NCBI GenBank assembly: GCA_022572465.1
Contig: JACZVV010000002.1
Coordinates: 1 to 63,964 of the forward strand
Direction of reading: 5' to 3'
DNA length: 63,964 nucleotides
From: Chloroflexota bacterium
Lineage (GTDB): Bacteria > Chloroflexota > Dehalococcoidia > SHYB01
The stretch's first letter is position 1. Every line of letters starts with the position of its first letter. This document shows, piece by piece, positions 33,871 through 52,094 of the stretch. The notes under the pieces are model-generated. The model did not search any database. It was given only the letters and a program-made list of their open reading frames with translations, and had not been told where the DNA came from. The translations under genes and the position numbers were made by a program.

Positions 33871-36465
33871 TCAGCCTTGGGGCGAGGGGTCAGCAACCGG
33901 CTCGAGCGACACGACGTACTCCACCGGCGCCGTAGTGGTCTGGGCCAGGGCCGCGACCATCAGCACCGCGCCCAGCACCCCGCCGGTATCCAGCGTCAGA
34001 ATCAGCTCACCCCGGTTCATGGAGTCCAGCGGCACGGTGATCACCTGAGCCGGGTCGCCTGGGACCAGGACCCGGACGGCGAACCGCTGGGCGACGAGGT
34101 TGTTGGAGCGCACGAACCCGCTGGCCTCCCACTCGCCGAGGGACTCGGCGTCGTCGGAGTAGCCGATCTCCGGGATCGCCAGGTCGTCGATGGCCAGGCC
34201 GTCGTTGTCCACCGCCTGGTCGGTGATGTACTCGAAACGAATCCAAACGAGCGCGCCGGCGTACGGGGTCAGGTCGACGGTCTCCCGGATCCAGACCGGC
34301 TCGCTGCCACCGCCGCTGACGCCGGTGTAGGCGGGCCCGAAGCTCTGGTCGACCGGATCGTCGTCGGTGGTGTGCTCACCAGGCAAGACGTCCCAGGTCT
34401 CGCCGCCGTCCCGCGACGCTTCGACGTAGGCGTAGTCGTAGTCCTGCTCGATGTCGTGCCACAAGCTAAAGCTCAGGGTAGCCTGGGAGACTCCGGTGAG
34501 GTCGAAACGGCGCGTCAGGGTCGTGTCGATGGAGTCGCCACGGTTGCTCCACCAGAAGAACTCGCCGCTGGGCGCCTCGGTGGGGATCAGCGGTGACGAC
34601 GCAGGCCCCTGGAACGTAAGGCGCATCGAGTCGCCCTCGGGCGCCAGCTTGATGTAATCGGCGGCGTATTGGTGCACCGTCCCCGTGAGCTCGCCGGGAC
34701 CGTCCAACGTCGCCGCCAGCGACCGCCGAGGAGTGTCGCCCGCGGGCGAGTCGGGTCCATCGAGCCGTGGATGCAGGTAGCCTTCGGTCGCCCAGTCGAC
34801 GAACGCCGCGTCGAAGCCGCCGTCGACGCCTTGCCCGGCGAGGAACTCATCGACGCCTCGGATGCCCTGCTCCTCGCTGGAGATCAGCAAGGCCACGGCG
34901 TCCTGTCCGAATCGGTTGCTCAGGTAACGGTAGAAGAGGTAGGTCGCGCCGTAGTGAGGCAGGGTGGCGGACGATTCATCGGGCCAGGTGGTGAGCTGGG
35001 TGTCGGGCCGGCTCAAAAAGTCCGCCAAGAAGCTTGCGCCGTAGCCAGCGGCCTGGGCGACGTACTCCGATGCGCCCTCCTGCATCCAGCTCTGCTCAAC
35101 GGGGTCCGCCTGGGCCTGGGCCGCATGCTGCAACTCGTGGGCCAGGACGGAGAAATAGCGGTCCGTCCCCGGTCGAAGAATCCGTACGTTGATGTAGATC
35201 ATGGGCCGCTCTTGGCTGAAGCGATAGACGGCGCGGGGAAGGAGATCGGCCTGGTTGAAGTACCCGGCCACGCCGGGGATGCGCGCGTGGAGGATCGTCA
35301 TGCGGGAGTCGATGCCCGCGCCGGGGTCCCAATCGGGGTTGGCCAGTCGCCGCACCTCGGGGATGATGCGTTCCTCCAGCTCGCGGGCCGAGCGTTCCAG
35401 GTCCTCGGCGGCTATCGAGACGCTGTCCTCGACGTAAAAATAGGCGTTGGGACTGACGTGCCGGAGGGTCGCCCGCACCGTAAAAGGCCGGCGTTCGTCC
35501 AGGTCCAGAACGTTGAACTGCTCCTGGCGTCCGACGGCGTGGTCCGTGCCTCGGTAGGCGATGGGTTCGATCGTTCCGGCGCCCTTGAGCTTGAGCCGGA
35601 GGGCCTGCTCGATGGGGTCGCCCTTGGGCGGCACAGGGATCGGCAGGTAACGTGGCCCAGGAGGCGTCGGCGTCGGTTGAGGCGTCGGTGTCGGTTCAGG
35701 CGTCGGCTCGGGTGTCGACGTGGCCGTAGGGGCCGGCGTCGGTGGAGCGGACGTGGGCGTGCTGTTGGAGGTGGGCGTCGCCGTCGGCGGAGGACGTACC
35801 GGCGGCGCTGCCGAGGGGGAGAATTCGCCGGTCAGGCCGTCGACCGTTCCCGAAACGACGCCTTCGGGCGTCTCGCAGAAGACGTGCCAAGTCAGGCTTT
35901 GTTGGTCGCCTACCAACGTCATCGAGCGGACCTGGCATCCGCTCCAGTGCTCGACCGCGGCCCTGGCTACCGCAGCGGGACCGGTCCGCAGGGCTCGAAC
36001 GTCGATGCCCGGTTTCGGATGGCCCAGGAGGGGCGTGAGATGCCCGGATATGACCTCCCACTGCTCGATTGGGGCATCACGCGTGGGGACAGTGATGTTG
36101 ACCGCCTGGGTCGCTGCGGCGTCGGTGAACCGGAAGATCAGTGGCTGGCCGCCGGGACCGATGCCGAGCTGCCGCAGCACCGCGCCGGCGACGATCTCGC
36201 GGGCCCGGAGCGTCGCTGCGTCGGCCACGGCGGCCAGCGCGACGGCGTCGGCATGACGTTCGGCCGGCGTGGGTGCGCGATCCGGTGTTGGCTCGCCGGT
36301 CGCGATGGCCGTTGGCGACGGCGCGGACGTCGGTGTGCTGGTCGAGCCGCTGCATGCCGCGACGACGAGTCCAACCGTCAACGCCAGGGCTATCGCGGCC
36401 AGCGCTGGGCTCGTCCGGGGGGAACGGGTCCTCTTTCGCCTTTCGAGTGTCGTGGTGGTTGGCAT
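33871..36465 (-). CDS. Secreted lipoprotein zinc metalloprotease (HExxH gluzincin) with a PT-rich linker
   Basis: Signal peptide plus lipobox (LTVGLVVAAC-SG), PT linker (..[28 protein letters not shown]), LAHELQHAAQ with a downstream Glu (WMQEGASEY). The C-terminal WHDIEQDYDYAYVEASRDGGETW...IRFEYITD block recalls InhA/M6-type peptidases (recollection only). Confidence 0.7.
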   Translation of the reverse strand: MPTTTTLERRKRTRSPRTSPALAAIALALTVGLVVAACSGSTSTPTSAPSPTAIATGEPTPDRAPTPAERHADAVALAAVADAATLRAREIVAGAVLRQLGIGPGGQPLIFRFTDAAATQAVNITVPTRDAPIEQWEVISGHLTPLLGHPKPGIDVRALRTGPAAVARAAVEHWSGCQVRSMTLVGDQQSLTWHVFCETPEGVVSGTVDGLTGEFSPSAAPPVRPPPTATPTSNSTPTSAPPTPAPTATSTPEPTPEPTPTPQPTPTPPGPRYLPIPVPPKGDPIEQALRLKLKGAGTIEPIAYRGTDHAVGRQEQFNVLDLDERRPFTVRATLRHVSPNAYFYVEDSVSIAAEDLERSARELEERIIPEVRRLANPDWDPGAGIDSRMTILHARIPGVAGYFNQADLLPRAVYRFSQERPMIYINVRILRPGTDRYFSVLAHELQHAAQAQADPVEQSWMQEGASEYVAQAAGYGASFLADFLSRPDTQLTTWPDESSATLPHYGATYLFYRYLSNRFGQDAVALLISSEEQGIRGVDEFLAGQGVDGGFDAAFVDWATEGYLHPRLDGPDSPAGDTPRRSLAATLDGPGELTGTVHQYAADYIKLAPEGDSMRLTFQGPASSPLIPTEAPSGEFFWWSNRGDSIDTTLTRRFDLTGVSQATLSFSLWHDIEQDYDYAYVEASRDGGETWDVLPGEHTTDDDPVDQSFGPAYTGVSGGGSEPVWIRETVDLTPYAGALVWIRFEYITDQAVDNDGLAIDDLAIPEIGYSDDAESLGEWEASGFVRSNNLVAQRFAVRVLVPGDPAQVITVPLDSMNRGELILTLDTGGVLGAVLMVAALAQTTTAPVEYVVSLEPVADPSPQG

Positions 36466-36478
36466 GGTCCTTCCTGAG

Positions 36479-36484
36479 TATAAT
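36479..36484. promoter_or_regulatory. Shared -10 box (TATAAT forward, TATACT on the reverse strand, offset 2 nt) in a 26-nt divergent spacer
   Basis: GAGTATAATCG read directly. The TATAAT ends 7 nt before ATG 36492. On the other strand TATACT ends 11 nt before the protease ATG at 36465. Confidence 0.4.
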
Positions 36485-36491
36485 CGCAGGT

Positions 36492-37247
36492 ATGTTCCGG
36501 CGGTTGAAAATCTGGAGTCGAGCGCTGGGCCGGCGACCCTTTCGCCGGTGGATGATTCCTCTTTTAGGTACGACGGCGCTGGCGGTCGCGGCTTGCGGCG
36601 GCGGCGATGCGGCGACGGCGACGCCGGCGGCGCCGGGCCTGTCGCCGAGGGACGTCTTGGACTCTTCGGCGGCGGCGATGGCCGAGGTCAGCTCGTTCCG
36701 CTACTCGCTGGAGAACTTCGGTGGGGAGACGCCGCTAACCGCCGGCCTGTCGATGCGGAGCGCCCGGGGCGTCATGGCCCAGCCGGACCAGCTGACGGCC
36801 CAGATCTCGGCCTCCTTTTCGGGATTTCGCGTGGAGGTGAACGTCATTAGCGTCGGCCAGCGGACGTACATGACCAACCCCATCACCGGCGCCTGGCAGA
36901 CCTTCGACACGGGACTGAGCCCCGTGGCGTTTTTCGACCCCGCCAAGGGCGTTAATCTCATTCTCCAGGGCATGATTCAGCCGTCGATCGGTGAGCCGAG
37001 CGAAGTGGATGGCGCTCCGGCCGTTCGCATCGTGGGCCAACTGCCGGCGGAGGCGGTGCAGTTCATCGCGGGTAGCTTCGCCGAGGGGTCGGTGCTGGAA
37101 GCCGAGCTCTTGATCGGCCAAGAGGATCGGCTGCTGAAACATGTCCGGCTGGCCGGGCGCATAACGGAGGGGGAGCCCGATGGGATGGTCAGGGTGCTGA
37201 CCTTCTCCGACTTCAACCAGACCTTCGATATCAAGCCGCCGGTCTAG
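36492..37247 (+). CDS. LppX/LprAFG-family lipoprotein (LprG-like)
   Basis: Inner ATG of ORF 36141..37247 (251 aa counted). Lipobox LLGTTALAVAAC-GGG. Aligns by eye with M. tuberculosis LprG: IVGQLPAEAVQFIAG vs ISGKVSAQAVNQIAP; C-terminal FDIKPPV vs VQVTKPPV. Confidence 0.7.
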   Translation: MFRRLKIWSRALGRRPFRRWMIPLLGTTALAVAACGGGDAATATPAAPGLSPRDVLDSSAAAMAEVSSFRYSLENFGGETPLTAGLSMRSARGVMAQPDQLTAQISASFSGFRVEVNVISVGQRTYMTNPITGAWQTFDTGLSPVAFFDPAKGVNLILQGMIQPSIGEPSEVDGAPAVRIVGQLPAEAVQFIAGSFAEGSVLEAELLIGQEDRLLKHVRLAGRITEGEPDGMVRVLTFSDFNQTFDIKPPV

Positions 37248-37265: not shown

Positions 37266-38765
37266 ATGGCACGGTCGGGCGACCGTTCGGACCGCAACGC
37301 TTCTGCCTCCGGCGTCGTGCTCGCGCTGGCCGGCGCCGGCGTTTTCCTCGCTGCCCTGGACCAGACGTCCGTCGTCACCGCGCTCCCGGAGATCATCAAC
37401 GACATCGATCTCCCGGTGACCGATCTGGACCGCGGCGCCTGGATCATCACGGGCTACCTGGTGGGCTACACGGCGGCCATGCCCCTGGTGGGGCGGCTCT
37501 CCGACACCTACGGGCACCGCCGGGTCTACGTGGCGTCGATGCTGGTCTTCATGCTGGGCTCTGCCCTGGTCGCCGTCGGCGACAGCTTGGGCTGGCTCAT
37601 CGGCGCTCGGATCGTCCAGGCCGTGGGCGGCGGGGCGGTGGTGCCGGTGGCCATCGCCCTGGTGAGCCAGAACCTCCCCGAGTCCAGGCGCGGCATCGCC
37701 ATCGGAGCCGTCGTCGCCGTCGCCGAGGCGGGGGCCGTCCTTGGGCCGCTGTACGGCGGACTCATCATCGAACTGCTGGACTGGCGCTGGATCTTCTGGT
37801 CGAATCTTCCCGTGGGCGGCGTCATCATCCTGATGATGGCGGCGACGGTGAAGGATGATCGACCTTCGGCGGGCGCCGTCGACTACACCGGGGGGCTGCT
37901 TCTGGGCGCCAGCTTGGTTTTGCTGGCGCTGGGCCTCTCCGGCGACGCGCTGCTTGGTCCGGGCGTTGGGTGGCAAGCTGGATTCCTCGCCGCGGCGGGC
38001 GTATCGCTGCTGTCGTTTTTCTGGTGGGAGGCGAGGGCCACCGAACCCCTGCTGCCCTTGCATTTGTTGCGGCTGGTCCCGCTCGCCGCGGCAAACGGGG
38101 CCAACGTCCTCATCGGCGGCGCGCTGATCCTGGCGCTGGTGAACATTCCCCTGATGACGGACACCATCATGGGCAAGCAGCCCCTGGAGGGCGGGCTTCG
38201 ATTGCTCCGTCTGACGATGATGATCCCCATCGGAGCGGTGCTCGGCGGGTTGCTGTACCAGCGGTTCGGCTATCGTCTCCCGATGGTTACGGGGCTGACG
38301 CTCGCCGCTCTCGGCTTTGTTCTGCTGGGCCGGTGGCCATTGGACGTGGGCGACCCCAGGATGTCGCTGGAGCTGATGGTGGGAGGGCTGGGGTTCGGGC
38401 TGGTGGTGACTCCGGTGACGCTGGCGGCCCTGAACCATGTGGGTGAGGGGCAGCGCGCGACCTCGGCGGCCCTGGTTACGGTGATGCGGATGGTGGGCAT
38501 GATCGCGGGGCTTTCGGCCTTGAGCTCCTGGGGGCAGGACCGCTTCCAATCGCTGGTGGGCCGCATACCGCTCCCGGTCCAGCAGGCGGGAGAGGCCGAC
38601 GCGTTGTTCGAGGTGCGGTCCGCCGTGTACCAGGACCAGGCGCTGAACGCCGCGCTGACCTTCTTTCACGAGGTGTTCTTCGCGGCCGCCATCGTGTGCG
38701 GCGTGGCCCTGGTGGGCGCGTTCTTGATGGGGCGAAAGGGCGGGGAGGTGGTGGACCCGAGCTGA
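37266..38765 (+). CDS. MFS transporter, DHA2-like (~14 TM), P55/Rv1410c-like by context
   Basis: 499 aa; 18 nt downstream of the LprG-like gene; LDQTSVVTALPEI and GRLSDTYGHRRV motifs typical of drug:H+ antiporter MFS. Confidence 0.8.
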   Translation: MARSGDRSDRNASASGVVLALAGAGVFLAALDQTSVVTALPEIINDIDLPVTDLDRGAWIITGYLVGYTAAMPLVGRLSDTYGHRRVYVASMLVFMLGSALVAVGDSLGWLIGARIVQAVGGGAVVPVAIALVSQNLPESRRGIAIGAVVAVAEAGAVLGPLYGGLIIELLDWRWIFWSNLPVGGVIILMMAATVKDDRPSAGAVDYTGGLLLGASLVLLALGLSGDALLGPGVGWQAGFLAAAGVSLLSFFWWEARATEPLLPLHLLRLVPLAAANGANVLIGGALILALVNIPLMTDTIMGKQPLEGGLRLLRLTMMIPIGAVLGGLLYQRFGYRLPMVTGLTLAALGFVLLGRWPLDVGDPRMSLELMVGGLGFGLVVTPVTLAALNHVGEGQRATSAALVTVMRMVGMIAGLSALSSWGQDRFQSLVGRIPLPVQQAGEADALFEVRSAVYQDQALNAALTFFHEVFFAAAIVCGVALVGAFLMGRKGGEVVDPS

Positions 38766-38771
38766 GGCGCG

Positions 38772-39635
38772 TTACGTGTCTTGCCGGGAGCTCACCTGGA
38801 CACTGCGCTGAGCCTGCGTTGGACCCGGCGCCTGCCGGGCCAGCGCCGTCAGGGTCTCGCCGCCGGCGCTCGACGATATGAGATAGCTTTTGAAGGCCGA
38901 GACTTTCATCCAGGTGCCGGTGCTGGCGCCGGTGCTACTGAAGCCGGACGTCACGATGACGCCTTCTTCTGAAGTGTTGGTGAACCGGATGGTGTAGGTG
39001 CCGCCGGTGACGAGGTTGCCGGGCACGATCCCGTTGGCGGGACTGGTCGACCCGAAGGCGTCGAGCACCTGAGGACCGAGAGCGCCGGTGCCCTCGAAGA
39101 CCGCCAGCTCCCAGTCGGTGTCGGGCGCGAACGCCCAGTTGATTTCCAACGGAGTGTTGGTGCGGACGTTGGGCAGCAGATACTGGAAGCTGACTTCGGG
39201 GCCGAGGACCAACAGGCTGGTGGAGCTCTCGGGGTCGACCAGCGTCGGCCCGAAGAGCAGCGAGTCGTCGCCGGGTGGCTGCGAGATGGTGATCGTCGCC
39301 GAAATACCGTTGACGGTGACGCTGGGGATCGTGTAGCCAACGTCCAGCGCGTCTAGCCCCAGGGCCAGGTCCTTGATCACGGCCTCGATCCCCGCCTCGG
39401 CGGCGTAGTAGGCCTCTTCTCCTACCGTGTCGTCTTGGATCTGATCGATGCTGGACGAGAGGAAGGTCATCCAGGGCACGATGATCAGGATGCCCACGGT
39501 CAGCACCACCATCACGGCGGGCATGATGAAGCCGCGCTGGCCACCCAGACTCCGTGCGCTCCGTATCGGCGACGGGGCGCCGTGGCTATGGGAGCGTCGG
39601 GAGCATGAGGAACGCTTGAAGGGTCGTCGTGTCAT
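38772..39635 (-). CDS. PilX-like minor pilin
   Basis: GGQRG-FIMPAVMVVLTVGILII hydrophobic N-terminus and EEAYYAAEAGIEAVI (PilX_N-type [FY]YAAEAG motif). Start uncertain: ATG 39635 overlaps the upstream gene by 50 nt and gives a 35-aa Arg/Ser/His-rich leader; a CTG near 39548 would give a ~6-aa leader. Confidence 0.6.
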   Translation of the reverse strand: MTRRPFKRSSCSRRSHSHGAPSPIRSARSLGGQRGFIMPAVMVVLTVGILIIVPWMTFLSSSIDQIQDDTVGEEAYYAAEAGIEAVIKDLALGLDALDVGYTIPSVTVNGISATITISQPPGDDSLLFGPTLVDPESSTSLLVLGPEVSFQYLLPNVRTNTPLEINWAFAPDTDWELAVFEGTGALGPQVLDAFGSTSPANGIVPGNLVTGGTYTIRFTNTSEEGVIVTSGFSSTGASTGTWMKVSAFKSYLISSSAGGETLTALARQAPGPTQAQRSVQVSSRQDT

Positions 39636-40704
39636 AGGCAAGCATGCCGTCCGCGCCGGATTGCGTGTCGAACTGGACCGTTACTTCTATTTTATGCCCC
39701 GCCGCTAGGGTGTAGGCAACTGCGTTGCCCTTCAGCGTGACTTGGGTCCACCCGGAGGACGAGGTGAACCAGGCCAGGGCGCGGTTGCCGATGACCGTGG
39801 AGGCGTCGAGTCCGGGGTCGTAGTCTTTGAACGTAGCTATCGCCAGCATCTTGTGCCCGCTGGCGAACCCATCCGCCGCGCCCATGAGGAAGAGATTGAT
39901 CCGCCCGACGATGGTGATGGACTGGGCCAGCGCGTCGGAACGCCAGTCCTGGTGCTTGGTTTTGTCGGTCTCGTCCACGGCGGAGGAGAGGACGAGCGTC
40001 AGGCCCGCGTCGGAGTTACGGTCCTGGTCGTAGTTGTAGAGGGTCGTCGTGGTGGGAATGGTGCTGCTGAGGGGCAGGTTGACCCGAGCGTTGGTGGCCG
40101 CCACCGGCGGCGTGGGCTTGTTGTGCAAGAAGTAGTACTGGTACTCGATGGGGTTGGTCTGCTCGGGACGCAGAGACACCTCCAGGGTAGTCGATTGCTG
40201 GAAATCGTCCACCTGGTCGGCGCTCAGGTCCTCGCTGGTGACCGTGATGCTCACGGTCAGGAGACGCTCGGTCGAGGTGGGGATCAGCGGGTTGACCGTC
40301 GTCGTCACCGTGTACGAAACGTCGCCAACGACTTCGATCATGTGCACCAGAGGCAACAGGGGTTCGGCCACGTTGCCGATATACTCCTGGCGGTAGAGGA
40401 CCTTTTCCTCCCACAGGTACTCCACCCGGTGCCGCGTGGGCGGGAAGGCGCTGAAGTCCAGCCATCGAAAAATGCCGTACACGGGGGAGGTCCCGGCCTC
40501 AAACGACTCGGCGTTGGACACGTCCTGCTTGATGGTGGCGGATGCCGACCGGAGCTGATTGTGGATGCCCACCTCGCCCAGGCTGCGGCGTGGCGTCGTC
40601 TGGAACTGGCGCAGGGCCGCCACGATGCCGCCCAGGACCAGGGCGCCGATGGTCAAGGCGGTGATCAGCTCGACCGTGGAGAAGCCCCTGCCGTTCGGAA
40701 TCAT
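39586..40704 (-). CDS. Prepilin-type minor pilin, PilW-like
   Basis: MIPNGRG-FSTVELITALTIGALVLGGIVAAL is a class III signal (cleavage/methylation motif with Glu+5); 372 aa. Confidence 0.7.
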   Translation of the reverse strand: MIPNGRGFSTVELITALTIGALVLGGIVAALRQFQTTPRRSLGEVGIHNQLRSASATIKQDVSNAESFEAGTSPVYGIFRWLDFSAFPPTRHRVEYLWEEKVLYRQEYIGNVAEPLLPLVHMIEVVGDVSYTVTTTVNPLIPTSTERLLTVSITVTSEDLSADQVDDFQQSTTLEVSLRPEQTNPIEYQYYFLHNKPTPPVAATNARVNLPLSSTIPTTTTLYNYDQDRNSDAGLTLVLSSAVDETDKTKHQDWRSDALAQSITIVGRINLFLMGAADGFASGHKMLAIATFKDYDPGLDASTVIGNRALAWFTSSSGWTQVTLKGNAVAYTLAAGHKIEVTVQFDTQSGADGMLAYDTTTLQAFLMLPTLP

Positions 40705-40762: not shown

Positions 40763-43700
40763 CTAATCGTCGTATATCCAGAAATTCGTGGTATTGTTGC
40801 CTCCCGGGGCGTAGAATGCGCCGTCCAGGTAGCTCAAGGCGCCGCCGGCACTCACATTTGCGGGCGTACTGGCCAGGACGATCCAAGTATTCCCAGTGAT
40901 GCTATAGCGCCAGAACGCTGTCGAGATGTCTCCGCGCAGCGCATAGACCGACAGGCCTTCGGTCGCCAGAGCGCCTCCCTGATCGACGGTCGCGGGGGTG
41001 GTCTCCAGGGCGGTCCAGGTGTCGAAGCCGACGTTGTACCTCCAGAATGTCGTCTGACCGCCGCCGCGGAGGGCGTAGACCTTGCCGTTGAGGTAGATGA
41101 GAGCGCCTCCCGCTCCGACCGTCAACGGCGTATCGGCCAGGCCGGTCCAGCTATCGCCGGCGATGCTGTACTTCCAGAACGCCTGCATGTTGGTGGCGGA
41201 ACCGCCGTCGCCTGTGAAGGCGTAGATGGTGTCCGATCCGTCCCAGGCGAGCGAGCCGCCCCAGCCAGCGTTGGTCGGGACACTAGCTTTGACCTCCCAC
41301 AGGCCGGAGCTGACGTTGAACCGCCAGAAATCCACTCGCTTGCCGCCGCGGAAGGCGTAGATGTATGCCGAGCCGCCGTCGTTGGCGTAGGCCAGCGCGC
41401 CGCCCTCCTTGACCGTGGCCGGAGCGTCGGCCACGGCGCTCCAGGTAGCGGAATCCACGGTGTACTTCCAGAACGTCTTTGGGGAGGAGCCCCTTAGCGC
41501 GTAGAAATCGGTCCCGTCCGTTGCCAGCGCTCCCCCTTTGCCGACGTTGGCGGGCGTGTTGGTGAGAGCGGTCCAGCTGGCCGATGGCCCCGCGGTCGGG
41601 AAGGGCGTGGGCGTGGGCGTCGGCGTCGGGGTTGGCGTGGGCGTGGGCGTCGGCGTGGGCGTGGGCGTGGGCGTCGGCGTTGGTGTCGGCGTTGACGTGG
41701 GGGTTGACGTCGCGGTTGGCGCCGGTGTGGGGGTGGGCGTTGGCGGCGGGAGAGTAGGAGTCCCGCAGCGCCAGAAGTTCGTCGCCAAATCGCCGCGGAG
41801 AGCGTAGTGGGCCCCGTTCAGATGGACGAGGCTCCCGCCATCGGCTATGTTGGCTGGCGTGTTTGTTTGAGTTAACCACGTGTTGGCAGGAACGCTGAAG
41901 CGCCAAAAGTCGTTGTTTCCGTCGCCTCGAAGGGCGTACAGCGAATCACCCACGCCTGACTGGATGAACGAACCACCGCCGACGACGTTGGCGGGGGCGT
42001 TCGGCAGCGTGGTCCACGAGTCGGGGCCGATTTCATATCGCCAGAAGGCGATGCTGCTGTTGCCGCGGAAGGCGTAGACGGATCCGGTCTCGTACGTGAG
42101 GGCGCCGCCTTTCTCGACGGTTCCCGGCGCATTGGCCAGGGTGGACCAACCGTCACCGGAGATGCTGTACTTCCAAAACGTCGTGGTGAAGCCGCCCCGA
42201 AAGGCGTAAATGCCGTCTGCACCGTCCCAGGCTAAAGCGCCTCCCCAATCGATATTCGCCGGAGTGGTCGCCATGGTCTCCCAGCTCCCGGAGCTGATGT
42301 TGAACCGCCAGAAGTCGTTACTCCCTTCGCCCCGGAGCGCGTAGATATAGCGGGCGCCGCCAACGGTGGCGTAGAGGAGGGACCCACCGTTGCCGACGTT
42401 CGCGGGCGCGATGGTTGAAGAGGACCAAGAGTTCGTGCTGATGGTGTACTTCCAGAAGTCCCGCGTCGTGTCGCCCCGGAACGCGAAGATGTTGATGAGG
42501 TCGGTGGCCAGGGAGCCGCCGTCATGGACGTTGGCCGGCGTGTTGGCCAGGGAGACCCACGAGCAGACCTCCACCGGCAACGGCGTCGCTGCCGGCGTAG
42601 GTGTCGGCCCAATCGTCGGCGTTGGGGTGGGCCCCGCGGTTGGCGTCGGCCCAGGTGTCGGCGTCGGCGTAGGTGTCGGCCCGATCGTCGGCGTAGGTGT
42701 CGGCCCAATCGTCGGCGTTGGAGTGGGCCCCGCCGTTGCCGTCGCTGTTGGAGCCGCCGTTGGAGTCGGCGTTGGCGGCGGAGGCACACCGGTGTTGAAC
42801 TTCTGGAAATCGGGCGTGTTGTTGCCGCTCAGGGCATAGACAGCGCCATTCAGGTGCGCCAGCGATCCACCCTGGCCCACGGTGGTCGGAGCGTCGTCCG
42901 CAGTCGACCAGGTACCGTCGGCGATGCTGAACTTCCAGAAGTCCGTCGTCGTGCCACCACGGAATGCGTAGACGAAGGTCCCGTCGGTGGTGAGACTGCC
43001 ACCCTCGTCCACCGCGGCGGGTGTATCCGGAAGGATGGTCCAGGTCCCGCTGCTGACGTCATATTTCCAGAACGAGGTGGAGCCGCCGCCGCCCATGGCG
43101 TAGAGGTTGCCCGAATCGTAGACCAGCGAGCCGCCGGCCCCGACGTCCCCCGGGGCGTCGGCCAGGCTGGTCCAGCTATCGTCGGCGATGCTGTACGCCC
43201 AGAACGCCTTCTTGTTGGTCCCCGCGCCGCCGTCGCCGGTGAAGGCATAGATGGTGTCCGCGCCGTCCCAGGCCAGGGACCCGCCCCAGCCGACCAAGCT
43301 GGGCGCCGCGGCCATTGGTTCCCAGAGGCCGGAGCCGATGTCGAAGCGCCAGAAGTCCAAAGTACCGATGCCGCCGAAGGCGTAGAGGTAGCCTGCGCCG
43401 CCATCGGTGGCATAGGTCAGAGCGCCGCCCTCGTTCACGTCGGCAAGCGCGTCGTTCAGTATGCTCCACGTGCCGCCGGCCACGAAGTACTTGTAGAGCG
43501 CCTTCTTGTTGGCGCCGCCGCCCCAGTTGCCGCCGAAAGCGTAGAGGTCGACGCCGTCGGTCGTCAGGGCGCCGCCCTTGCCGATTTTGTTGGGCGCGTT
43601 GGCGGAGACTACCCAACCCGGAGGAACGGGTTTTGGCGGCAGCGGCTCCGGAATCCCGGGGTTGAACTTCCAGAAATCGGGCGTGTTGTTGCCGCGCAGG

Positions 43701-44935
43701 GCATAGACAGCGCCATTGAGGTGGGCCAGCGACCCTCCTTGTTTCACGGTCGCCGGGGCATCGTCCGCGGCCCCCCAGGACTCTTCCGAGATGCTGAACT
43801 GCCAGAAGTCGCGCGTCGCGTTGCCCCGGAAGGCGAAGACGGAGGTGCCGTCGGTGGCGAGCCTGCCGCCCTGGTTGACCGCTTTGGGCGTTGGCGGCAG
43901 GAAGGACCAGGCGCCCGAGCTGACGTTGTAGCGCCAGAATTCTTTCCTGTTGCCGCCGCGCAGGGCGTAGAGGTTGCCCGAATCGTAGACCAGCGCGCCG
44001 CCGGCCTTGACGGTCCCCGGGGCGTCGGCCAGGCCGGTCCAGCTATCGCCGGCGATGCTGTACTTCCAGAACGCCTTGTTGTTGGTGCCCTGGCCGCCGT
44101 CGCCGGTGAAGGCGTAGATCGTATCCGAGCCGTCCCAGGCCAGGGAGCCGCCCCAGCCGGCCTTGCTGGGCGCCGCCGCCTTGAGCTCCCAGAGGCCGGA
44201 GCCGATGTTGAAGCGCCAGAAGTCCAGCTGCTCGCCGCCGCGGAGGGCGTAGAGGTAGCCCGAGCCGCCGTCGGTGGCGTAGGCCAGTGCGCCGCCCTCT
44301 TTGACGTCGGCGGGCGCGTCGGCCAGTGTGCTCCACGAGTTGCTGGAGACGCGGTACTTGTAGAAGGCCTTCTTGTTGGCGCTGGCGCCCCAGTCGCCTC
44401 CGAAAGCGTAGAGGTCGACGCCGTCGGTCGCCAGGGAGCCGCCCTTGCCGATGTTGTTGGGCGCGCCGGCGGGGTTGGGAACTACCCAACCCGATGGAAC
44501 GGGCGTTGGCGTCGGCGTCACGTCGGGTATGGGCGTCGGCGCCGGCACTCCCTCGGCCGCCTGGATCGCCGGCAGGTCCCGGGTCTTGTAGGCCGTGAGC
44601 ACGGTGTCGCCGGCGTCGTAGGATACCGTAACCGTGATCTCCTGGAGCAAGCCGGGCTCCAGGATTATCCCGGCGATGGTGATGGTGTAGTCGGTGGAAG
44701 GCGGCGCGATGGTGGCGTAGTCGATCGGCTCGGCGTAGGGCTGGTTCTTGATCGACTCGATTTGGGAGCGGGCCAGTTGAAGGGCGGTGGTGTCTTGCTT
44801 GACCAGGTCGGTGCTGCGGATGCCTAGAGCAAGGGAGCTGAGCAGTGCGGTGAGGACCAGACCGACCAAAGCGGTGCCGATCATGATCTCCACCAGGGTG
44901 AGACCGCGCTGGCCGGCGGGCCTGTCTCTACTCAT
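40763..44935 (-). CDS. Giant PilV/GspI-like pseudopilin fused to four Kelch-like six-bladed beta-propellers via PT linkers
   Basis: ORF 40763..44974 (GTG); ATG 44935 gives [33 protein letters not shown] ~130-aa pilin domain ([13 protein letters not shown]) is followed by four ~270-aa modules. Each module is six repeats of W..LA.AP..V..GGAL..DG...YA[FL]RG.....FW[KR][YF]. The modules are separated by Pro/Thr linkers. Confidence 0.8.
41582..41764 (-). repeat. Imperfect hexanucleotide (GGCGTS)n tandem repeat encoding a (TP)n linker
   Basis: Plus-strand GGCGTGGGCGTGGGCGTCGGCGTCGGGGTTGGCGTGGGCGTGGGCGTCGGCGTGGGCGTGGGCGTGGGCGTC... encodes ..[34 protein letters not shown]. Coordinates derived from residue counts, +/-6 nt. 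Confidence 0.8.
42566..42790 (-). repeat. PT linker with a repeated 27-nt unit (PTPTIGPTP)
   Basis: Encodes [68 protein letters not shown]. The unit GGTGTCGGCCCAATCGTCGGCGT recurs three times on the plus strand. Confidence 0.75.
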
Positions 44936-45141
44936 GGCGCTTTGCTGTCTTTCAGGGCCGGCCCCCGACGCCACCCGTCGAGCGTCAAGTCGGGCCCAAC
45001 CTCAGAGAGGGGAGCCGGTGACCCTACAAGTACGACCTTCCCGGTTGGGTAGATGATTCGCGGGCCCGGGCGGCGACGAACCTTTCGGGCGCGCCGTTCT
45101 TGGCCGTGCCGGCGACTTACCGAAATTTCACAACCAGGTTC

Positions 45142-45161: not shown

Positions 45162-46739
45162 TCAAAACCTCCAGAAGTCTTTCATATCGCCGCCGCGGAA
45201 CGCATAGATGTCTCCGCCGACGAAGGTCAGGGCTCCTCCATCGTTGACGTTGGCGGGCGTGTCGGCAAGGTTGGTCCAGCTATTAGCGCCGACGTCGTAT
45301 CTCCAGAAACGGTTGTTGCCGTTGCCGCGCAGGCCGAAGATGAAGGTCCCGTCGGTGGTCAACCCGCCGCCGCCCTTGACGAACTCCGGCGCGTCCGACA
45401 GGGAGCTCCAGGAGTCCGAGCCCACGTTGTACTTCCAGAAATCCTTGGTGTTGTTGCCCCGGAGGGCGTAGAGGGCGCCCGAGAGGAAGACCAGGGCGCC
45501 GCCGTCCCGGACGTTCTCCGGAGCGTCGGCCGCCGTGGACCAGCTATCGCCGGAGATGCTGTACTTCCAGAATTCTTTGCGGTTGTCGCCCCGGAACGCG
45601 TAGATGGTGTCCGCGCCGTCCCAGGCCAGGGCGCCGCCCCAGTACACGTTCTCCAGCGCGTCGGCTTGGGTCTCCCAGATCCCGCTGGTGATGTTGAACC
45701 GCCAGAAGTCCCGTTTGCGGTCCCCGCGGAAGGCGTAGACGTAAGGGCTGCCGCCATCGGTGGCGAAGGCCAGGGCCCCGCCTTGCTTGACGTTGTCCGG
45801 CGTGTTGGCCAGTGAGGCCCAGGTCCCGCTGGAGACGGTGAACTTCCAGAATTCTTTGGTATCGTCGCCCCGTAGCCCATAAACGTCGGTGCCGTCGTTG
45901 GTCAGGGCGCCGCCGCTGTTCACGTCCTCGGGGGCGTCCGCCAGCACCGTCCACGAGGGGATCGGCGTGGCGGTGGGCGTAGCCGTCGGCGTGGGCGTGG
46001 CGGTGGGCGTGGCCGTCGGCGTGGGCGTCGGCGGCGTGCCGGTGGGCGTGGCCGTGGCCACTACGGTTCCGCCGCCGATGGCGGCGTCGAAGGCCGCGTA
46101 CCAGACGCCGCTGGACTCGTAAGTTGGGACAACCAGCACGTTGAACAGCACGACCCACCGGAACTCGCCGTCGGTGATGCCGTTGCCGTTGGTGTGGTCG
46201 GTGTCGATGTCGGCGTTGGCCTCGGCGGCGGTCTCGGGGAGCCGTTTGAGATAGATGTTCTCTTCGCCGAGCATCGGATGGGCGGTTCCGGTCTTTTCGT
46301 TCTCGGGTCCGGCGACGGTGCCGAAGGCCTCGTTGGAGAGGAGCCCCATCCAGACCAGGCCGGCGTCGATGTCGGCGGTGGCGGCCGCGCCGCCGGTGGC
46401 GGGGCCCACGACGTGCTTGTCGATCCTCGGATTGTCGGGGGTGTTGGGGTCGAAGATGGTGACGCTGAGCTCCAGCTCCCCCGGTTGGCCGTCCTCGGTG
46501 GGCAGAAGGCGCTGCGCCGACTCGACGCCCCAACGGTTGGAGCTATCGGGCCCTCGGTGCTTGTCGGTGGAGAAGGCATCCACCGCCTGCTGCAAGAGCC
46601 GTTGGTCTTGCAGCAGGGCTGCCGCGCGGCCCCGGGCCAACAGCCCGACCACGCTGGGAATGGTGATGGCGGCCAGGATCGCGATGATGGCCACGACCGT
46701 CACCACCTCGATGAGCGTGAATCCTCGTTGGTTTCGCAT
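45162..46739 (-). CDS. Type IV pilin fused to one Kelch-like six-bladed beta-propeller
   Basis: MRNQRG-FTLIEVVTVVAIIAILAAITIPSV. A ~225-aa pilin domain paralogous to 46840..47535, then the linker [32 protein letters not shown], then six repeats (e.g. [44 protein letters not shown]). Confidence 0.85.
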   Translation of the reverse strand: MRNQRGFTLIEVVTVVAIIAILAAITIPSVVGLLARGRAAALLQDQRLLQQAVDAFSTDKHRGPDSSNRWGVESAQRLLPTEDGQPGELELSVTIFDPNTPDNPRIDKHVVGPATGGAAATADIDAGLVWMGLLSNEAFGTVAGPENEKTGTAHPMLGEENIYLKRLPETAAEANADIDTDHTNGNGITDGEFRWVVLFNVLVVPTYESSGVWYAAFDAAIGGGTVVATATPTGTPPTPTPTATPTATPTPTATPTATPIPSWTVLADAPEDVNSGGALTNDGTDVYGLRGDDTKEFWKFTVSSGTWASLANTPDNVKQGGALAFATDGGSPYVYAFRGDRKRDFWRFNITSGIWETQADALENVYWGGALAWDGADTIYAFRGDNRKEFWKYSISGDSWSTAADAPENVRDGGALVFLSGALYALRGNNTKDFWKYNVGSDSWSSLSDAPEFVKGGGGLTTDGTFIFGLRGNGNNRFWRYDVGANSWTNLADTPANVNDGGALTFVGGDIYAFRGGDMKDFWRF

Positions 46740-46777
46740 GGGCGCACTGCCGACCTCAGGGTGTACCCGCAGCTATC

Positions 46778-46820
46778 GAAAAAGAGAGGGCGCCCCTAAC
46801 TCCAGCCGGGGGCGCCCTCT
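46778..46820 (-). terminator. Rho-independent terminator after the 231-aa pilin gene
   Basis: Minus strand AGAGGGCGCCCC-(12 nt loop)-GGGGCGCCCTCT followed by CTTTTTCG. Perfect 12-bp stem. 20 nt after the stop, 38 nt before the next ATG. Confidence 0.8.
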
Positions 46821-46839
46821 TCGGTTCCCAATGTTCGCC

Positions 46840-47535
46840 TTAGGGGAAGGCGTCGTTGTACCCGACGTACCACTTGCTGTCGGTGACGCTCTTGTAGGCG
46901 GGCTTGATCTGGCCGTTGTGGAGCACGATCCAGGAGTAGGTCCCCTCGGTCCTGCCGTTGTCGTTCGTTGGGTCGTCGTCGGTATCGGTGTTGATCTCGG
47001 CAGCCGACTCGGGGAACTCCAGCAGGTACTCGCCCGTTTCGCCGCTCTGCGGGTGGGCGTCGCCGGACTCGTTCTGCTCGCCGCCCGAGCCCACGTTGTC
47101 CGACGGCTCGTTGACCAGGAGCCCGATCCATAGCGCCGCCTCTTCGATGTCGCTGTCGACGGCGTCGGCGCCCACGGGGGGGCCCGTCACGTGTTTCATG
47201 ACCTGGAAGTTGTCGCGGTCGGTGAAGTCGCCGTCTGTCAGGCTCGGGCTCAGCTCCACGTCGCCGACCTCGCCATCCTCGGTTGCGAACAGCCGCTTGT
47301 TACCGGTCAACCCCCAATTGAAGGTGACGTCCGGCCCCTTGTGCTTGTCGGTCTTGAACGCGTCCGACACCTGCTGGAGCTGCTTTTCGTCGGTCAGCAG
47401 CGCGCTTCTCTCACCCGAGCTAAGGAAGGTGAGGACGCTAGGGATGGCAACGGCGGCCAGCACGCCCAGGATCGCAATGGCGACGATAATCTCGATGAGG
47501 GTGAAACCCCTCTCTTGTCGCTTGAAATTGCGCAT
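46840..47535 (-). CDS. Type IV pilin (candidate major pilin), acidic, Cys-free
   Basis: MRNFKRQERG-FTLIEIIVAIAILGVLAAVAIPSV; 231 aa; own promoter candidate upstream and a strong terminator downstream. Confidence 0.85.
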   Translation of the reverse strand: MRNFKRQERGFTLIEIIVAIAILGVLAAVAIPSVLTFLSSGERSALLTDEKQLQQVSDAFKTDKHKGPDVTFNWGLTGNKRLFATEDGEVGDVELSPSLTDGDFTDRDNFQVMKHVTGPPVGADAVDSDIEEAALWIGLLVNEPSDNVGSGGEQNESGDAHPQSGETGEYLLEFPESAAEINTDTDDDPTNDNGRTEGTYSWIVLHNGQIKPAYKSVTDSKWYVGYNDAFP

Positions 47536-47692: not shown

Positions 47693-47721
47693 ATTTTACC
47701 GCAGTTTCAAACCTTTGTCAT
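47693..47721 (-). promoter_or_regulatory. Sigma-70-like promoter candidate (ATGACA-17-TAAAAT) for the 231-aa pilin
   Basis: Read on the minus strand in the 244-nt spacer between the two pilin genes; ~150-nt 5' UTR; AAGGA before the ATG. Confidence 0.4.
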
Positions 47722-47779
47722 GGATGCAGGCCAGCGACAGTGTGCACGGGGCAGCACCGCCGCCGGCCTCACTCAGCTC

Positions 47780-48445
47780 TTACTTGCCGTAGTCGGCGTC
47801 GTTCTTCAGCACGATGACGTTGTTGTTCTTGTCCACGTTCCAGACGAAGAAATCGTCGGCGCTGCCGTCGATGGCAAAGTCCACATGGATCTCGCAGGTC
47901 TCGCCGGCCGGGGTGCAACCGGTGATGGTAAGGTCCACTGTGTTGTTCCCGCCTTCCGTGATGTCGATGCTGTCCGGGGCCGTGAAGGTGCCGTGTTGCG
48001 GGGCACTCTTGATGAAGTCCGGCACCAGAAGGGCGGCGAAGTCAATGGAGCCGAAACAAGCGTCGATGGAAGCGTCGCGGCCCGCGCCGGCGCACGTCAC
48101 TTCCGTGCCGGCCGGTTTCAAGGACCCGTCGGATATGCCGGTGTCGTCGATGAAGATGATGATGATCCCGTCCCCATTGGTGTCGCCGCCTACGATGGCC
48201 GTGCCGGGGTTCGAGCTCTCAGAGACGGGGAAGGTGCCCGGGTTCACCGACTCGAACCGGGCCACGGCGGTGTCGGTGTTCTTCATGTCGCCGTCTTTAC
48301 CCGACGTACGGGCTTCGCCCGAGGTGCCGGTGACGGAAGCGGCGACGATGGTGGTCAGCAACGCAAGGATCGTGACCACAACGGTCATCTCCAGAAGGGT
48401 GAACCCCCTCTGGCTTCGAAAAAGCCTGCCTATCAGTTTTCGCAT
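47780..48445 (-). CDS. Type IV pilin with two Cys pairs
   Basis: ORF 47780..48469 (TTG); ATG 48445 follows GGGAGG and gives MRKLIGRLFRSQRG-FTLLEMTVVVTILALLTTIVAA. Cys pairs: VTCAGAGRDASIDAC and GCTPAGETC. Confidence 0.8.
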   Translation of the reverse strand: MRKLIGRLFRSQRGFTLLEMTVVVTILALLTTIVAASVTGTSGEARTSGKDGDMKNTDTAVARFESVNPGTFPVSESSNPGTAIVGGDTNGDGIIIIFIDDTGISDGSLKPAGTEVTCAGAGRDASIDACFGSIDFAALLVPDFIKSAPQHGTFTAPDSIDITEGGNNTVDLTITGCTPAGETCEIHVDFAIDGSADDFFVWNVDKNNNVIVLKNDADYGK

Positions 48446-50078: not shown

Positions 50079-52094
50079 GTGCGCCAGTACCGCTACTCGT
50101 TCTGGGATGGCACGCAAGAGCCGTTCGACCTTCACCCGGACGAGGTGATGGACGAGCTCGCCGACGACCTGTTTAACGACAGCAGCGTCATGCGCGCGCT
50201 CCAGCGCCTGATGCAACGCGGGATGACCAACCAGGCCGGTCAGCGCACCAAGGGCATTCGCGATCTTCTGGAGCAGCTGAAACAGCGGCGCCGGCAGGAG
50301 ATGGAGCGGTACGACCTCGGCTCGGTCCTCAACGACATCAAAGAGCGGCTGCAAGACATCGTCGATACGGAGCGGGAAGGGATCGACCGGCGGCTTCAGG
50401 AGGCGCGTCAGCGGGTGGCGCAAGATCCGTCGCAGGCGTCGCTGCTGCAAACGGTGCAGAACCTGGCCGACCGCCGCCGCGACACGCTGGACCAGCTCCC
50501 CGACGACCCGGCGGGCCAGATCAAACAGCTGAGCGACTACGACTTCATGGACGCCGAGGCGCGGCAGAAGTTTCAGGAGCTCATGGACGAGCTCAAGCAG
50601 AAGATGATGGAGCAGTACTTCAAGGACATGCAGAGCTCGCTCCAGGGGATGACGCCGGAGCAGATGCAGGGCATGAAGCAGATGCTCAAGGACCTGAACC
50701 AGATGCTGGACCAGCACTCGCGGGGTCAGCTGAGCGACGAGCAGTTCCAGCAGTTCATGCAGCGGTACGGCGAGATGTTCGGGCCCAATCAGCCGGCGAA
50801 CATGGAAGAGCTGATGGAGCAGATTCAGGAGCGGATGGCCCAGGCGCAGTCGCTGCTGGACAGCATGCCCGAGGAGACGCGGCAGCAGCTCCAGGACCTG
50901 ATGGCATCACTGATGGACGACGAGATGCGGCAAGAGCTGGGCATGCTCGCCGCGATGATGGACGACATGTACCCGCCGGACGAGCTCAGCCGGCAGTACC
51001 CTTTCAGCGGCCAGGAAGAGATCTCGCTGGACGAGGCCATGCGGGTCATGGACCAGCTTCAGCAGATGGAGAATCTCGAGGCCCAGCTGAAAGACATCCG
51101 AACGCCGGACGACCTGGAGCGAGTCGACGAGGAGAAGCTGGCGGAGCTTCTGGGCGAGGAGGCCAAGCGGACGTGGGAAGAGCTGAAGAAGCTGATGAAA
51201 CGCCTGGAGGAGGCCGGATACATCCGGCGCAAGGGCGACAGGCTGGAGCTGACGCCTCGGGGCATTCGTAAGATCGGCCAGAAGGCCGTCCGCGATATCT
51301 TCGCCCAGCTCAAGAAGGACCGCATTGGGAGCCACGAGACGAGATACCGGGGCATGGGCGGCGAGAACACGGGCGAGACCAAGCCCTGGGAGTTCGGCGA
51401 CGATTTCGCCGTCGACCTGCAAAAGTCGCTGATGAATACGGTGCGGCGGGAGGGCGTGGGGACTCCGCTGCGCATGCGGGTGGATGACTTCGAGGTCGAG
51501 CGGGTGGAGCACCGCACGGAGGCGGCGACGTGCCTGCTGCTTGACCGCAGCCGGTCGATGGGCTACTACGGCAACTTCACGGCGGCTAAGAAGGTCGCCA
51601 TCGCGCTCCACTCCCTCATCAGCAGCCAGTATCCCCGAGACGCCCTCTACATCATCGGGTTCTCCGACGTCGCGGTGGAGTTCAAAGGCGAAGATCTGCC
51701 GGAGCTGAGCTGGGACACCGGAATTTCGGGCACCAACATGCACCACGCGTTCATGATGTCGCGCAAGCTTCTGGCCAAGCACAAGGGCTGCACTCGTCAG
51801 ATCATCATGGTGACCGACGGCGAGCCTACGGCCCACCTGGACCACGGCGTGCCTTACTTCAGCTATCCGCCTTCGCCGCAGACCATCCGCGAGACGCTGA
51901 AGGAGGGCCGGCGGTGCGCCCAGGAAGGGATCGTCATCAACACTTTCATGCTGGAGAACAGCTATCCGCTGATCGATTTCATCAACCTCTTGTCGCGGGT
52001 CAACCGCGGCCGGGCCTTCTACGCCTCGCCCGACAAGCTCGGTGAATACGTATTGGTCGACTTCCTGAACAACCGCCGGACTCGAGTCGCGTAG
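50079..52094 (+). CDS. von Willebrand factor A (VWA) domain protein with a long Gln/Glu/Met-rich coiled-coil region
   Basis: GTG start. MIDAS DxSxS motif in CLLLDRSRSMG, later MVTDGEPTA. The N-terminal 350 aa are heptad-like (QQLQDLMASLMDDEMRQELGML...). Confidence 0.75.
   Translation: MRQYRYSFWDGTQEPFDLHPDEVMDELADDLFNDSSVMRALQRLMQRGMTNQAGQRTKGIRDLLEQLKQRRRQEMERYDLGSVLNDIKERLQDIVDTEREGIDRRLQEARQRVAQDPSQASLLQTVQNLADRRRDTLDQLPDDPAGQIKQLSDYDFMDAEARQKFQELMDELKQKMMEQYFKDMQSSLQGMTPEQMQGMKQMLKDLNQMLDQHSRGQLSDEQFQQFMQRYGEMFGPNQPANMEELMEQIQERMAQAQSLLDSMPEETRQQLQDLMASLMDDEMRQELGMLAAMMDDMYPPDELSRQYPFSGQEEISLDEAMRVMDQLQQMENLEAQLKDIRTPDDLERVDEEKLAELLGEEAKRTWEELKKLMKRLEEAGYIRRKGDRLELTPRGIRKIGQKAVRDIFAQLKKDRIGSHETRYRGMGGENTGETKPWEFGDDFAVDLQKSLMNTVRREGVGTPLRMRVDDFEVERVEHRTEAATCLLLDRSRSMGYYGNFTAAKKVAIALHSLISSQYPRDALYIIGFSDVAVEFKGEDLPELSWDTGISGTNMHHAFMMSRKLLAKHKGCTRQIIMVTDGEPTAHLDHGVPYFSYPPSPQTIRETLKEGRRCAQEGIVINTFMLENSYPLIDFINLLSRVNRGRAFYASPDKLGEYVLVDFLNNRRTRVA

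Follow-up and report, generated by a model that had tools for sequence, protein, structure and literature searches.

A bare type IV pilin, its Kelch-bearing paralogue and a conserved terminator-like hairpin between their genes in a marine-sediment Chloroflexota bacterium

For the type IV pili of Streptococcus sanguinis, a cap made of the I-like pilin PilA and the modular pilins PilC and PilB has been proposed, with PilB in contact with the major pilins (PMC9934059; PMC8179133). In the tcp cluster of Vibrio cholerae, a putative rho-independent terminator after tcpA was taken to explain why this gene is transcribed at a higher level than tcpB, which encodes a large minor pilin (Ng et al. 2016, PMC5207764). 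Modular pilins were surveyed in 2021, when 264 modular architectures were reported; Kelch is not mentioned in the supplementary text of that survey (PMC8179133). Here, we analyzed a minus-strand run of six prepilin-type genes in a 63,964-bp (~64 kb) stretch of DNA, hereafter the window, from an uncultured marine-sediment Chloroflexota bacterium (Dehalococcoidia-like, high-GC). The genes, in order, are pilin0, pilin A, pilin B, a 1403-residue I-like gene, a 372-residue J-like gene and a 289-residue K-like gene, and the analysis centered on A, B and the hairpin that separates them (Table 1). The window sequence was found in marine-sediment metagenomes, and X1 held 84% of the sampled words. Named homologues of the enolase encoded in the window all belonged to Chloroflexi or Dehalococcoidia (66-68% identity). 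Neither Kelch-bearing pilins nor pili of Dehalococcoidia-like bacteria were found described in quick literature searches. To our knowledge, hardly any work exists on type IV pili in Chloroflexota or, more generally, in uncultured bacteria from sediments.

Pilin A, pilin B and the hairpin between their genes

The original prediction, made from the sequence of the window, held that a 231-residue pilin aligns throughout with the first ~225 residues of a 525-residue pilin. This was borne out by BLASTP, in which 102 of 224 aligned positions were identical between A and B (46%; 63% positives, 5 gap positions, E=2e-49). The alignment spanned A residues 6-229 and B residues 2-220, and all three peptide pairs quoted in the prediction lay inside it. 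Both proteins matched the prepilin N-methylation motif PF07963 (E=1.3e-9 for A and 6.6e-9 for B) and TIGR02532. In line with the sequence definition of type IV pilins, A, B and pilin0 each have a leader ending in Gly, a hydrophobic segment of ~20 residues, Phe1 and Glu5. An assembly interface common to A and B had also been proposed, and the alpha1 helix agrees with it: F1, E5 and P22 were present in both proteins, and 30 of the first 55 mature residues were identical (hand count on the BLASTP alignment). The head domains were only ~40% identical.

AlphaFold2 (AF2) modeled A as a helix over residues 13-62 (a 50-residue alpha1) followed by a seven-strand beta head, with a predicted local distance difference test score (pLDDT) of 87 and a predicted template modeling score (pTM) of 0.78. 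The model fits the lollipop fold of pilins, in which a long N-terminal helix is set on a beta-sheet head. When the A head was compared with the PDB by Foldseek, no structure was retrieved at E<=1e-3. A profile of the A/B family, when run against PDB sequences, matched alpha1 but not the head; its best matches among solved structures were the major pilins Geobacter PilA-N, Myxococcus PilA, MshA, PAK, GspG and PilE1, in each case over alpha1 only (best E=5.7e-13). In B, Kelch repeats were detected by PF13964 (Kelch_6, E=3e-13), PF13415 (Kelch_3) and PF01344 (Kelch_1), all over the Pfam curated cut-offs, and residues 263-525 were predicted by AF2 to form a six-bladed propeller with a pLDDT of ~97. 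Foldseek paired this propeller with the Kelch domains of Keap1, KLHL12 and NS1-BP and with designed Kelch proteins (E ~1e-15, TMt 0.7-0.79). By these matches, B can be classed as a modular pilin in the sense of Raynaud et al. 2021, that is, an N_methyl pilin module joined to a domain that is not pilus-specific.

Two observations concern the handling of B in databases and assemblies. The 525-residue B protein of the window was missing from both homology listings (the A-relative and the Kelch searches). The 525-residue B orthologues in loci L005 (6850-8427) and L006, which are 99% identical, had no precomputed Pfam entry, although hmmscan found Kelch and N_methyl in the window copy; database annotation of this protein is thus missing. 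In addition, Pro/Thr (PT)-linker repeats (41616-41692 and 45960-46030) showed depth spikes to ~1200x and chimeric joints between B and the 1403-residue gene in Logan contigs from several runs. Such joints are an assembly hazard and represent no real deletion.

Full-length relatives of A were few in a word-indexed search and were all metagenomic; seven contexts were recovered. L005/L006, from a near-identical strain, matched the window in layout, with pilin0, A, a Kelch-bearing B and the large protein. L001, a 3.6-Mb contig, had the same gene order and neighbors, with a 513-residue B that carried a Kelch propeller; the positional counterpart of the 1403-residue gene was a bare protein of 169 residues. 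In L002, L004 and L008, pilin0 and A were accompanied by a bare B of 205-245 residues. A Kelch-bearing B was found in the window, L005/L006 and L001. The more distant L003 had one A-type pilin and no B. Its pilin set lay directly after genes for T2SSE, T2SSF, three small proteins (one PilM-like), a prepilin peptidase, a histidine kinase and a response regulator, which links the family with the machinery of type IV filaments. Scans of contigs from GTDB species representatives gave generic alpha1 matches only and did not recover the head-domain family.

In all-against-all comparisons, identity was 53-62% among A orthologues and 44-61% among B orthologues, versus 35-45% between A and B. Because orthologues were closer to each other than A was to B, the two are old, separately maintained orthologous lineages. 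The propeller is a lineage-specific addition to B and, in the lineage of the window, also to the I-like pilin. The second gene had previously been equated with the first plus a PT linker and a propeller. As a description of architecture (pilin module, PT linker, Kelch) this stands; as history it does not, given that the lineages are old and that B is bare in L002, L004 and L008. The A-type proteins (219-279 residues) were always bare and ended in a conserved ...GYNxxYP, whereas in B-type proteins, and in the module-bearing members of the family nearest to the window pair, the pilin module ended in ...WYAA...GGG before the linker. The L002 B orthologue (10762-11379, 205 residues) had an aberrant C terminus, ...TFQRHTGSFTRAHPMPRRAGSWLTW, where others keep conserved beta strands, which suggests a frameshift or a degraded gene.

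An Asp-rich loop resembling D-x-D-x-D...N-G-N-G, which the original prediction had likened to a Ca-binding site, was present in A, in every B orthologue and in some A orthologues, and it is no canonical EF-hand. Since the loop was deleted in four A orthologues (P0005, P0008, P0009 and P0012), it is not a constant feature of the family; the loop exists as sequence, and Ca binding by it is putative.

A terminator with a perfect 12-bp stem and a T-tract had been predicted between the two genes, and such an element was present ~20 nt after the A stop codon, reading AGAGGGCGCCCC-(12 nt)-GGGGCGCCCTCT at 46820-46785 and then CTTTTTC. In a custom scan of both strands, this was the sole perfect stem of at least 9 bp followed by at least four T in the entire window. 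The predicted pair of related pilins with this element between them goes far beyond what chance would produce. The hairpin recurred 3' of the A orthologue in five other lineages (L001, L002, L004, L005/L006 and L008). In L001, L002, L004 and L005, the hairpin and a U-rich tract were located within ~25 nt of the A stop codon; L008 had a similar hairpin with a weaker U-rich tail. The RNAalifold consensus of five lineages contained 12 pairs, 5 of which were compensatory, with both sides changed and pairing kept. As a GC-rich stem-loop followed by a U-tract at the 3' end of a gene, the element has the sequence features that define a rho-independent terminator and is a strong candidate for one.

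Other potential transcription signals were found around A. Upstream of its start codon is a promoter-like site (ATGACA-17-TAAAAT), identified by consensus match alone. No promoter-like site was present in the ~38 nt that separate the T-tract from the B ATG. A conserved motif, GGTTTGAA-N9-10-TA(A/G)(A/G)AT, was located in three lineages at ~150-165 nt before the A start (window 47693-47730, minus strand; L008, ~2525-2555; L002, ~9815-9840). In the form GGTTTGAA...TAAAAT, it overlaps the promoter-like site of A and was also seen in L005 and L008 and, more weakly, in L002, but it was not found upstream of A in L001 or L004. This motif may be a promoter or a regulator site, in which case a long untranslated leader would be left. 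A sigma-54 promoter upstream of A was considered and rejected, as no -24/-12 match was seen by eye. Rfam searches for riboswitch-type elements yielded nothing significant in the 157-nt A leader or around the hairpin. The pilin0 gene is also followed directly by a long GC-rich hairpin, in this case without a T-tract, and analogous hairpins were found after pilin0 in L001, L002 and L004.

Which subunit would form the shaft and where the propellers would sit

The reading that we favor, with a probability of roughly 0.55 for the whole, is that A forms the shaft, that B and the I/J/K-like pilins are produced by read-through, and that the propellers are located at the tip. A would be transcribed as its own short unit, from the promoter-like site 157 nt upstream of its ATG to the terminator 20 nt after its stop codon. 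B has no recognizable promoter of its own; together with the three pilins downstream, it would probably be made only when transcription reads through the A terminator, and thus in a small, constant proportion to A. As an old paralogue of A, B would have retained the alpha1 assembly helix while its free C terminus carries the add-on, a Kelch propeller tethered flexibly by a Pro/Thr linker. Assembly would be primed by the I/J/K set, which would be located at the tip, and B, which is major-pilin-like and occupies the place of GspH/FimU, would link the tip complex to the A shaft. The end of the fiber would then present up to five tethered ligand-binding propellers, probably adhesins for glycans or proteins.

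By analogy, gene context favors such a tip complex over random decoration of the shaft. The order A followed by B-I-J-K mirrors the order G followed by H-I-J-K, with a K-like protein that lacks Glu5. The five propellers are related: that of B was 49-55% identical to the four of the I-like protein, of which the first two were 74% identical to each other. On another Chloroflexota contig (L090, 7001-8323), a PilX-like protein is fused to Kelch inside a canonical type IVa pilus (T4aP) operon, PilB-PilC-...-PilN-PilM-PilD-PilT. Precedents are provided by PilA/PilC/PilB of S. sanguinis (PMC9934059, PMC8179133) and by tcpA-terminator-tcpB (PMC5207764); the latter is also a published precedent for the arrangement of a major subunit, a terminator and minor subunits that the original prediction called classic. 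The same prediction held that a filament of the bare pilin is occasionally decorated with, or capped by, propeller-bearing copies. On the reading as decoration, B would copolymerize with A along the whole shaft at a low ratio set by read-through, and tethered propellers would sparsely decorate the fiber rather than only cap it. The shared F1, E5 and P22 and the 30 of 55 identical mature residues are in keeping with copolymerization, and the predicted-disordered linker of ~35 residues could keep the propeller clear of the filament surface. We nevertheless consider it unlikely, because B heads an I-J-K-type tip gene set whose I-like member carries the same propellers, because the modular pilins of studied systems have been modeled or shown at the tip, and because, with heads only ~40% identical, head-to-head packing with A is not assured.

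From the genes, we infer that A is most likely the major structural subunit. A has both the promoter-like site and the sole canonical terminator in 64 kb, with a hairpin conserved in five lineages. A-type proteins are always bare with a conserved C terminus, the best solved-structure matches of the family profile (in alpha1) are major pilins, and the AF2 model is pilin-like. Moreover, when the window was compared with the near-identical strain L005, A had the most amino acid changes (8/230, versus 1/221 for pilin0 and 3/525 for B), as would be expected for the most exposed subunit. The serious alternative is that pilin0 is the major subunit and that both A and B have accessory roles in a heteropolymeric or multi-pilin fiber; an extra minor subunit is another possible role for pilin0. 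Its gene opens the cluster, its Shine-Dalgarno sequence (GGGAGG) is the best one, and a long hairpin comes after the gene; pilin0 was located upstream of A in all related loci and was duplicated in L003. On the other hand, this hairpin lacks a T-tract, and the canonical terminator and the promoter-like site belong to A. The match of pilin0 to solved major pilins was also weaker (best E=2.9e-5 with a single-sequence query, against 5.7e-13 with the A/B family profile, a different type of query), and pilin0 showed nearly no variation between strains. We regard a pilin0 shaft as distinctly improbable. That the hairpin is mainly a 3'-end stabilizer or processing barrier of the A mRNA, with B-I-J-K expressed from an unrecognized promoter or under independent regulation (for example, as a condition-specific fiber with B as major subunit), is very unlikely: stable stem-loops at 3' ends might be in general use here, as the T-tract-less hairpin after pilin0 suggests, and Chloroflexota promoters are poorly defined enough for one to have escaped notice in the ~40 nt from the hairpin to the B start, but four lineages keep a T-tract directly after the stem, the ~38 nt before the B ATG hold no promoter-like site, and a shaft of 525-residue subunits with bulky propellers is sterically unlikely.

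Several points weigh against an A shaft with a propeller-bearing tip. Pilin0 is likewise a full-length pilin with E5, and its gene has a strong Shine-Dalgarno sequence and a hairpin downstream; it could be the major subunit instead of A. With a tether of 35 residues, B would also fit sterically into the shaft. The I/J/K labels rest on sub-threshold hidden Markov model (HMM) matches, position and N-terminal motifs, and in L004 the I/J/K genes were not adjacent to the 0/A/B trio. When the 64-kb window was searched by tblastn with the L003 T2SSE, T2SSF, PilM-like and A24 peptidase sequences, none of the four gave a match, and no assembly ATPase, platform protein or prepilin peptidase was detected. 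The strain counts are small; for A, the ratio of non-synonymous to synonymous substitution rates (dN/dS) of 0.72 came from 8.5 non-synonymous and 3.5 synonymous changes. As for transcripts, RNA-seq runs X24-X26 (same study) held nothing of the locus except low-complexity matches to the PT linker. In the metatranscriptomic runs made by whole-genome amplification (X4, X21 and X22), contig depths followed DNA depth and are not trustworthy, including the depths of 6-12 for A and 3-5 for B in X22.

Other genes of the cluster, its neighborhood and the wider pilin family

N_methyl or TIGR02532 matches were obtained for four of the six cluster genes; the other two have class-III-like N termini. Pilin0, which belongs to another head family, matched PF07963 (E=1.5e-7) and TIGR02532. 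Its open reading frame reaches a TTG at 48469, and the ATG at 48445 is preceded by the GGGAGG noted above; the L005/L006 gene was called at 221 residues. The open reading frame of the I-like gene extends to a GTG at 44974, which gives 1403 residues, and its probable start is at 44935. The 1403-residue protein matched PF07963 just below the 21.2-bit cut-off (E=2.3e-4, 21.1 bits), and its matches to ComGE (E=1.9e-4), XpsI (E=5e-3) and GspI (E=8e-3) were all far below the curated cut-offs. Over its first 552 codons, the 1403-residue gene differed from that of L005 by 14 amino acid changes and ~3 synonymous changes (dN/dS ~1.7, from small counts). The 372-residue J-like protein had no match in Pfam, NCBIfam or PDB sequence searches; it was 39% identical to an L003 protein of 371 residues that has a weak N_methyl match. 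The 289-residue K-like protein was 39% identical to a 282-residue protein of L003.

The cluster is flanked by an amidohydrolase gene and a major facilitator superfamily (MFS) transporter gene. The metalloprotease, lipoprotein and MFS transporter neighbors listed in Table 1 recurred in L001 and L004, which indicates a conserved neighborhood, and the VWA-domain protein on the other side was syntenic in L005.

Table 1. Features of the window, with module-bearing relatives of pilins A and B (aa, amino acids).
Feature	Position	Strand	Description
Pilin A	46840..47535	-	231-aa bare prepilin, KRQERG/FTLIEI, E5 and P22; presumptive major subunit
Pilin B, whole gene	45162..46739	-	525 aa
Pilin B, pilin module (aa 1-224)	46068..46739	-	Paralogue of A, MRNQRG/FTLIEV, E5 and P22
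Pilin B, Pro/Thr-rich linker (aa 228-262)	45954..46058	-	Predicted disordered; AF2 pLDDT <50 over aa 219-253
Pilin B, six-bladed Kelch beta-propeller (aa 263-525) and stop codon	45162..45953	-	Pfam, AF2, Foldseek
Intrinsic-terminator-like element	46778..46820	-	Perfect 12-bp GC-rich stem (46785-46820), 12-nt loop, then CTTTTTC
Promoter-like site ATGACA-17-TAAAAT	47693..47721	-	157 nt upstream of A ATG; consensus match only
Long GC-rich hairpin without T-tract	47724..47772	-	Directly after pilin0 stop; RNA fold
Pilin0	47780..48445	-	221-aa prepilin, other head family, RSQRG/FTLLEM; first gene of cluster
I-like prepilin	40763..44935	-	1390 aa; GspI/ComGE-like module AGQRG/LTLVEIM and four Kelch propellers with PT linkers between
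J-like prepilin	39586..40704	-	372 aa, PNGRG/FSTVEL; J-like minor pilin position
K-like	38772..39641	-	289 aa, pilin-like N terminus GGQRG/FIMPAV without Glu5; K/PilX-like position; start codon uncertain
InhA-like M6 metalloprotease	33871..36465	-	MAM domain and PT-rich region
LppX/LprAFG-type lipoprotein	36141..37247	+	
MFS transporter	37266..38765	+	
VWA-domain protein	50079..52094	+	671 aa; Gln/Glu/Met-rich helical N-terminal half, C-terminal VWA domain
P0328			Pilin module and ConA-like lectin
P0365			Pilin module, InlB B-repeats and GH5 cellulase
P0367, P0385			Pilin module and B-repeats alone
P0408			Pilin module and Big_7/PKD
P0431			Pilin module, Big_7/PKD and CBM96
P0121			Pilin module and Kelch
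P0330, P0335, P0372			Pilin module and domains without assignment
L092	992..3217		Listed with the module-bearing members

A profile search of 1.84 billion cluster representatives retrieved 62 proteins at E<=1e-30; full head-domain matches numbered ~100. Bare members of this head family had 200-280 residues, and longer members kept the N-terminal pilin module and carried an add-on (Table 1). The lectin, CBM96 and GH5 modules suggest that carbohydrate binding or hydrolysis is displayed on pili, and they are the only, indirect hint that the extra modules may serve a pilus role such as adhesion. Whether the module-bearing members belong to the B lineage is ambiguous: P0335 was 46% identical to B and 40% to A, P0328 was 44% identical to B and 41% to A yet had the higher bit score to A, and only the C-terminal ...WYAA...GGG motif supports the assignment. 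A safe statement from these comparisons is that A-type pilins were never loaded and that the pilin family often carries carbohydrate-related modules. A bolder proposal is a two-pilin scaffold of Dehalococcoidia-like Chloroflexota, in which a carrier of the B lineage, with a head fold that has no solved relative, would have repeatedly captured Kelch, ConA-type lectin, CBM96 with PKD, and GH5 modules. Insertion along the whole fiber would be possible, with the ratio set by the conserved leaky terminator, and the result would be a cellulosome-like, programmable display fiber for the capture or degradation of polymers in sediment. We offer this as a speculation with a low chance of being correct.

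Further observations were made on this family and on the Kelch family of B. The 1 kb upstream of the cellulase-bearing P0365 was repetitive non-coding DNA without a pilin gene. In P0398, P0426, P0427, P0429, P0454 and P0470, the head domain (profile positions ~40-227) lay at the C terminus of proteins of 450-710 residues, in which neither N_methyl nor any other Pfam domain was matched; the explanation may be gene mis-calling, fusion or a role of the domain outside pilins. The Kelch family of B is common in Chloroflexota, where it is joined to several N termini of type IV filament proteins. Fusions among P0132, P0145, P0176, P0186 and P0194 had archaeal-type class III signal peptides (ERGVSxVIGA...), and in P0132 the Kelch propeller was fused to the N-terminal domain of a prepilin peptidase (PF06750).

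Comparison with described filament systems

The cluster is a new example of the known modular pilin design and not a new kind of machine: its principles match those of S. sanguinis and V. cholerae, and the 264 architectures already reported in 2021 place B within that design. Added interest comes from a pilin head fold without a PDB match, from the split of two old paralogues into a bare pilin and a carrier, and from the conserved terminator-like hairpin between them. The locus extends the modular-pilin concept to Kelch propellers, with five on two subunits, and to a head family of ~100 cluster representatives without a solved structural relative. The lectin, CBM and cellulase modules of the family suggest pilus-mediated attachment to polysaccharides or particles. 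As a comparative example of how a pilus may be built, it combines an always-bare structural pilin, a carrier paralogue whose modules can be swapped and, between them, a conserved terminator by which their ratio could be set.

With the general major-and-minor pilin sets, namely GspG with GspH-I-J-K of the type II secretion system (T2SS) and FimU-PilVWX of T4aP, the cluster would share the order of a major pilin, a major-like adaptor and I-, J- and K-like members, the last without Glu5. The assignments here are positional and motif-based, with HMM scores far below cut-offs, so that the H/I/J/K analogy is positional only; in addition, pilin0 precedes A, and the subunits are two to ten times larger. 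In PilY1/PilC of type IVa pili, a beta-propeller is placed at the pilus tip through a minor-pilin complex, as would be the case here, and has an associated loop motif of Ca-binding type. Unlike B, however, PilY1 is no pilin and its propeller is IPR008707 rather than Kelch; in the window, the propellers are covalently fused to pilin modules.

The V. cholerae tcpA/tcpB genes, and likewise cofA/cofB of enterotoxigenic Escherichia coli, resemble the A/B pair in having a major pilin gene, a putative intrinsic terminator and a much larger minor pilin, in which the N-terminal segment is homologous and domains are added at the C terminus. Beyond the N-terminal segment, no similarity was found between A/B and TcpA/TcpB. 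The toxin-coregulated pilus, which is of type IVb, belongs to a diderm and has only one minor pilin, whereas five further pilin-like genes, including the I/J/K-like set, accompany A here. In S. sanguinis, PilB (vWA) and PilC (lectin) (Raynaud et al. 2021, PMC8179133; Shahin et al. 2023, PMC9934059) are like B in combining a pilin module with a class III signal peptide, a linker and a C-terminal ligand-binding domain that is not pilus-specific. Those modular pilins are of low abundance and are predicted at the tip with an I-like nucleator, PilB is proposed to contact major pilins, and the organism is monoderm, as here. The locus in the window differs in that the module is a Kelch propeller, with a second subunit carrying four, and in that a long PT tether takes the place of a short loop. 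It differs also in its carrier, whose pilin module is clearly paralogous (46%) to the presumptive major pilin and comes from an uncharacterized family with a head of ~170 residues.

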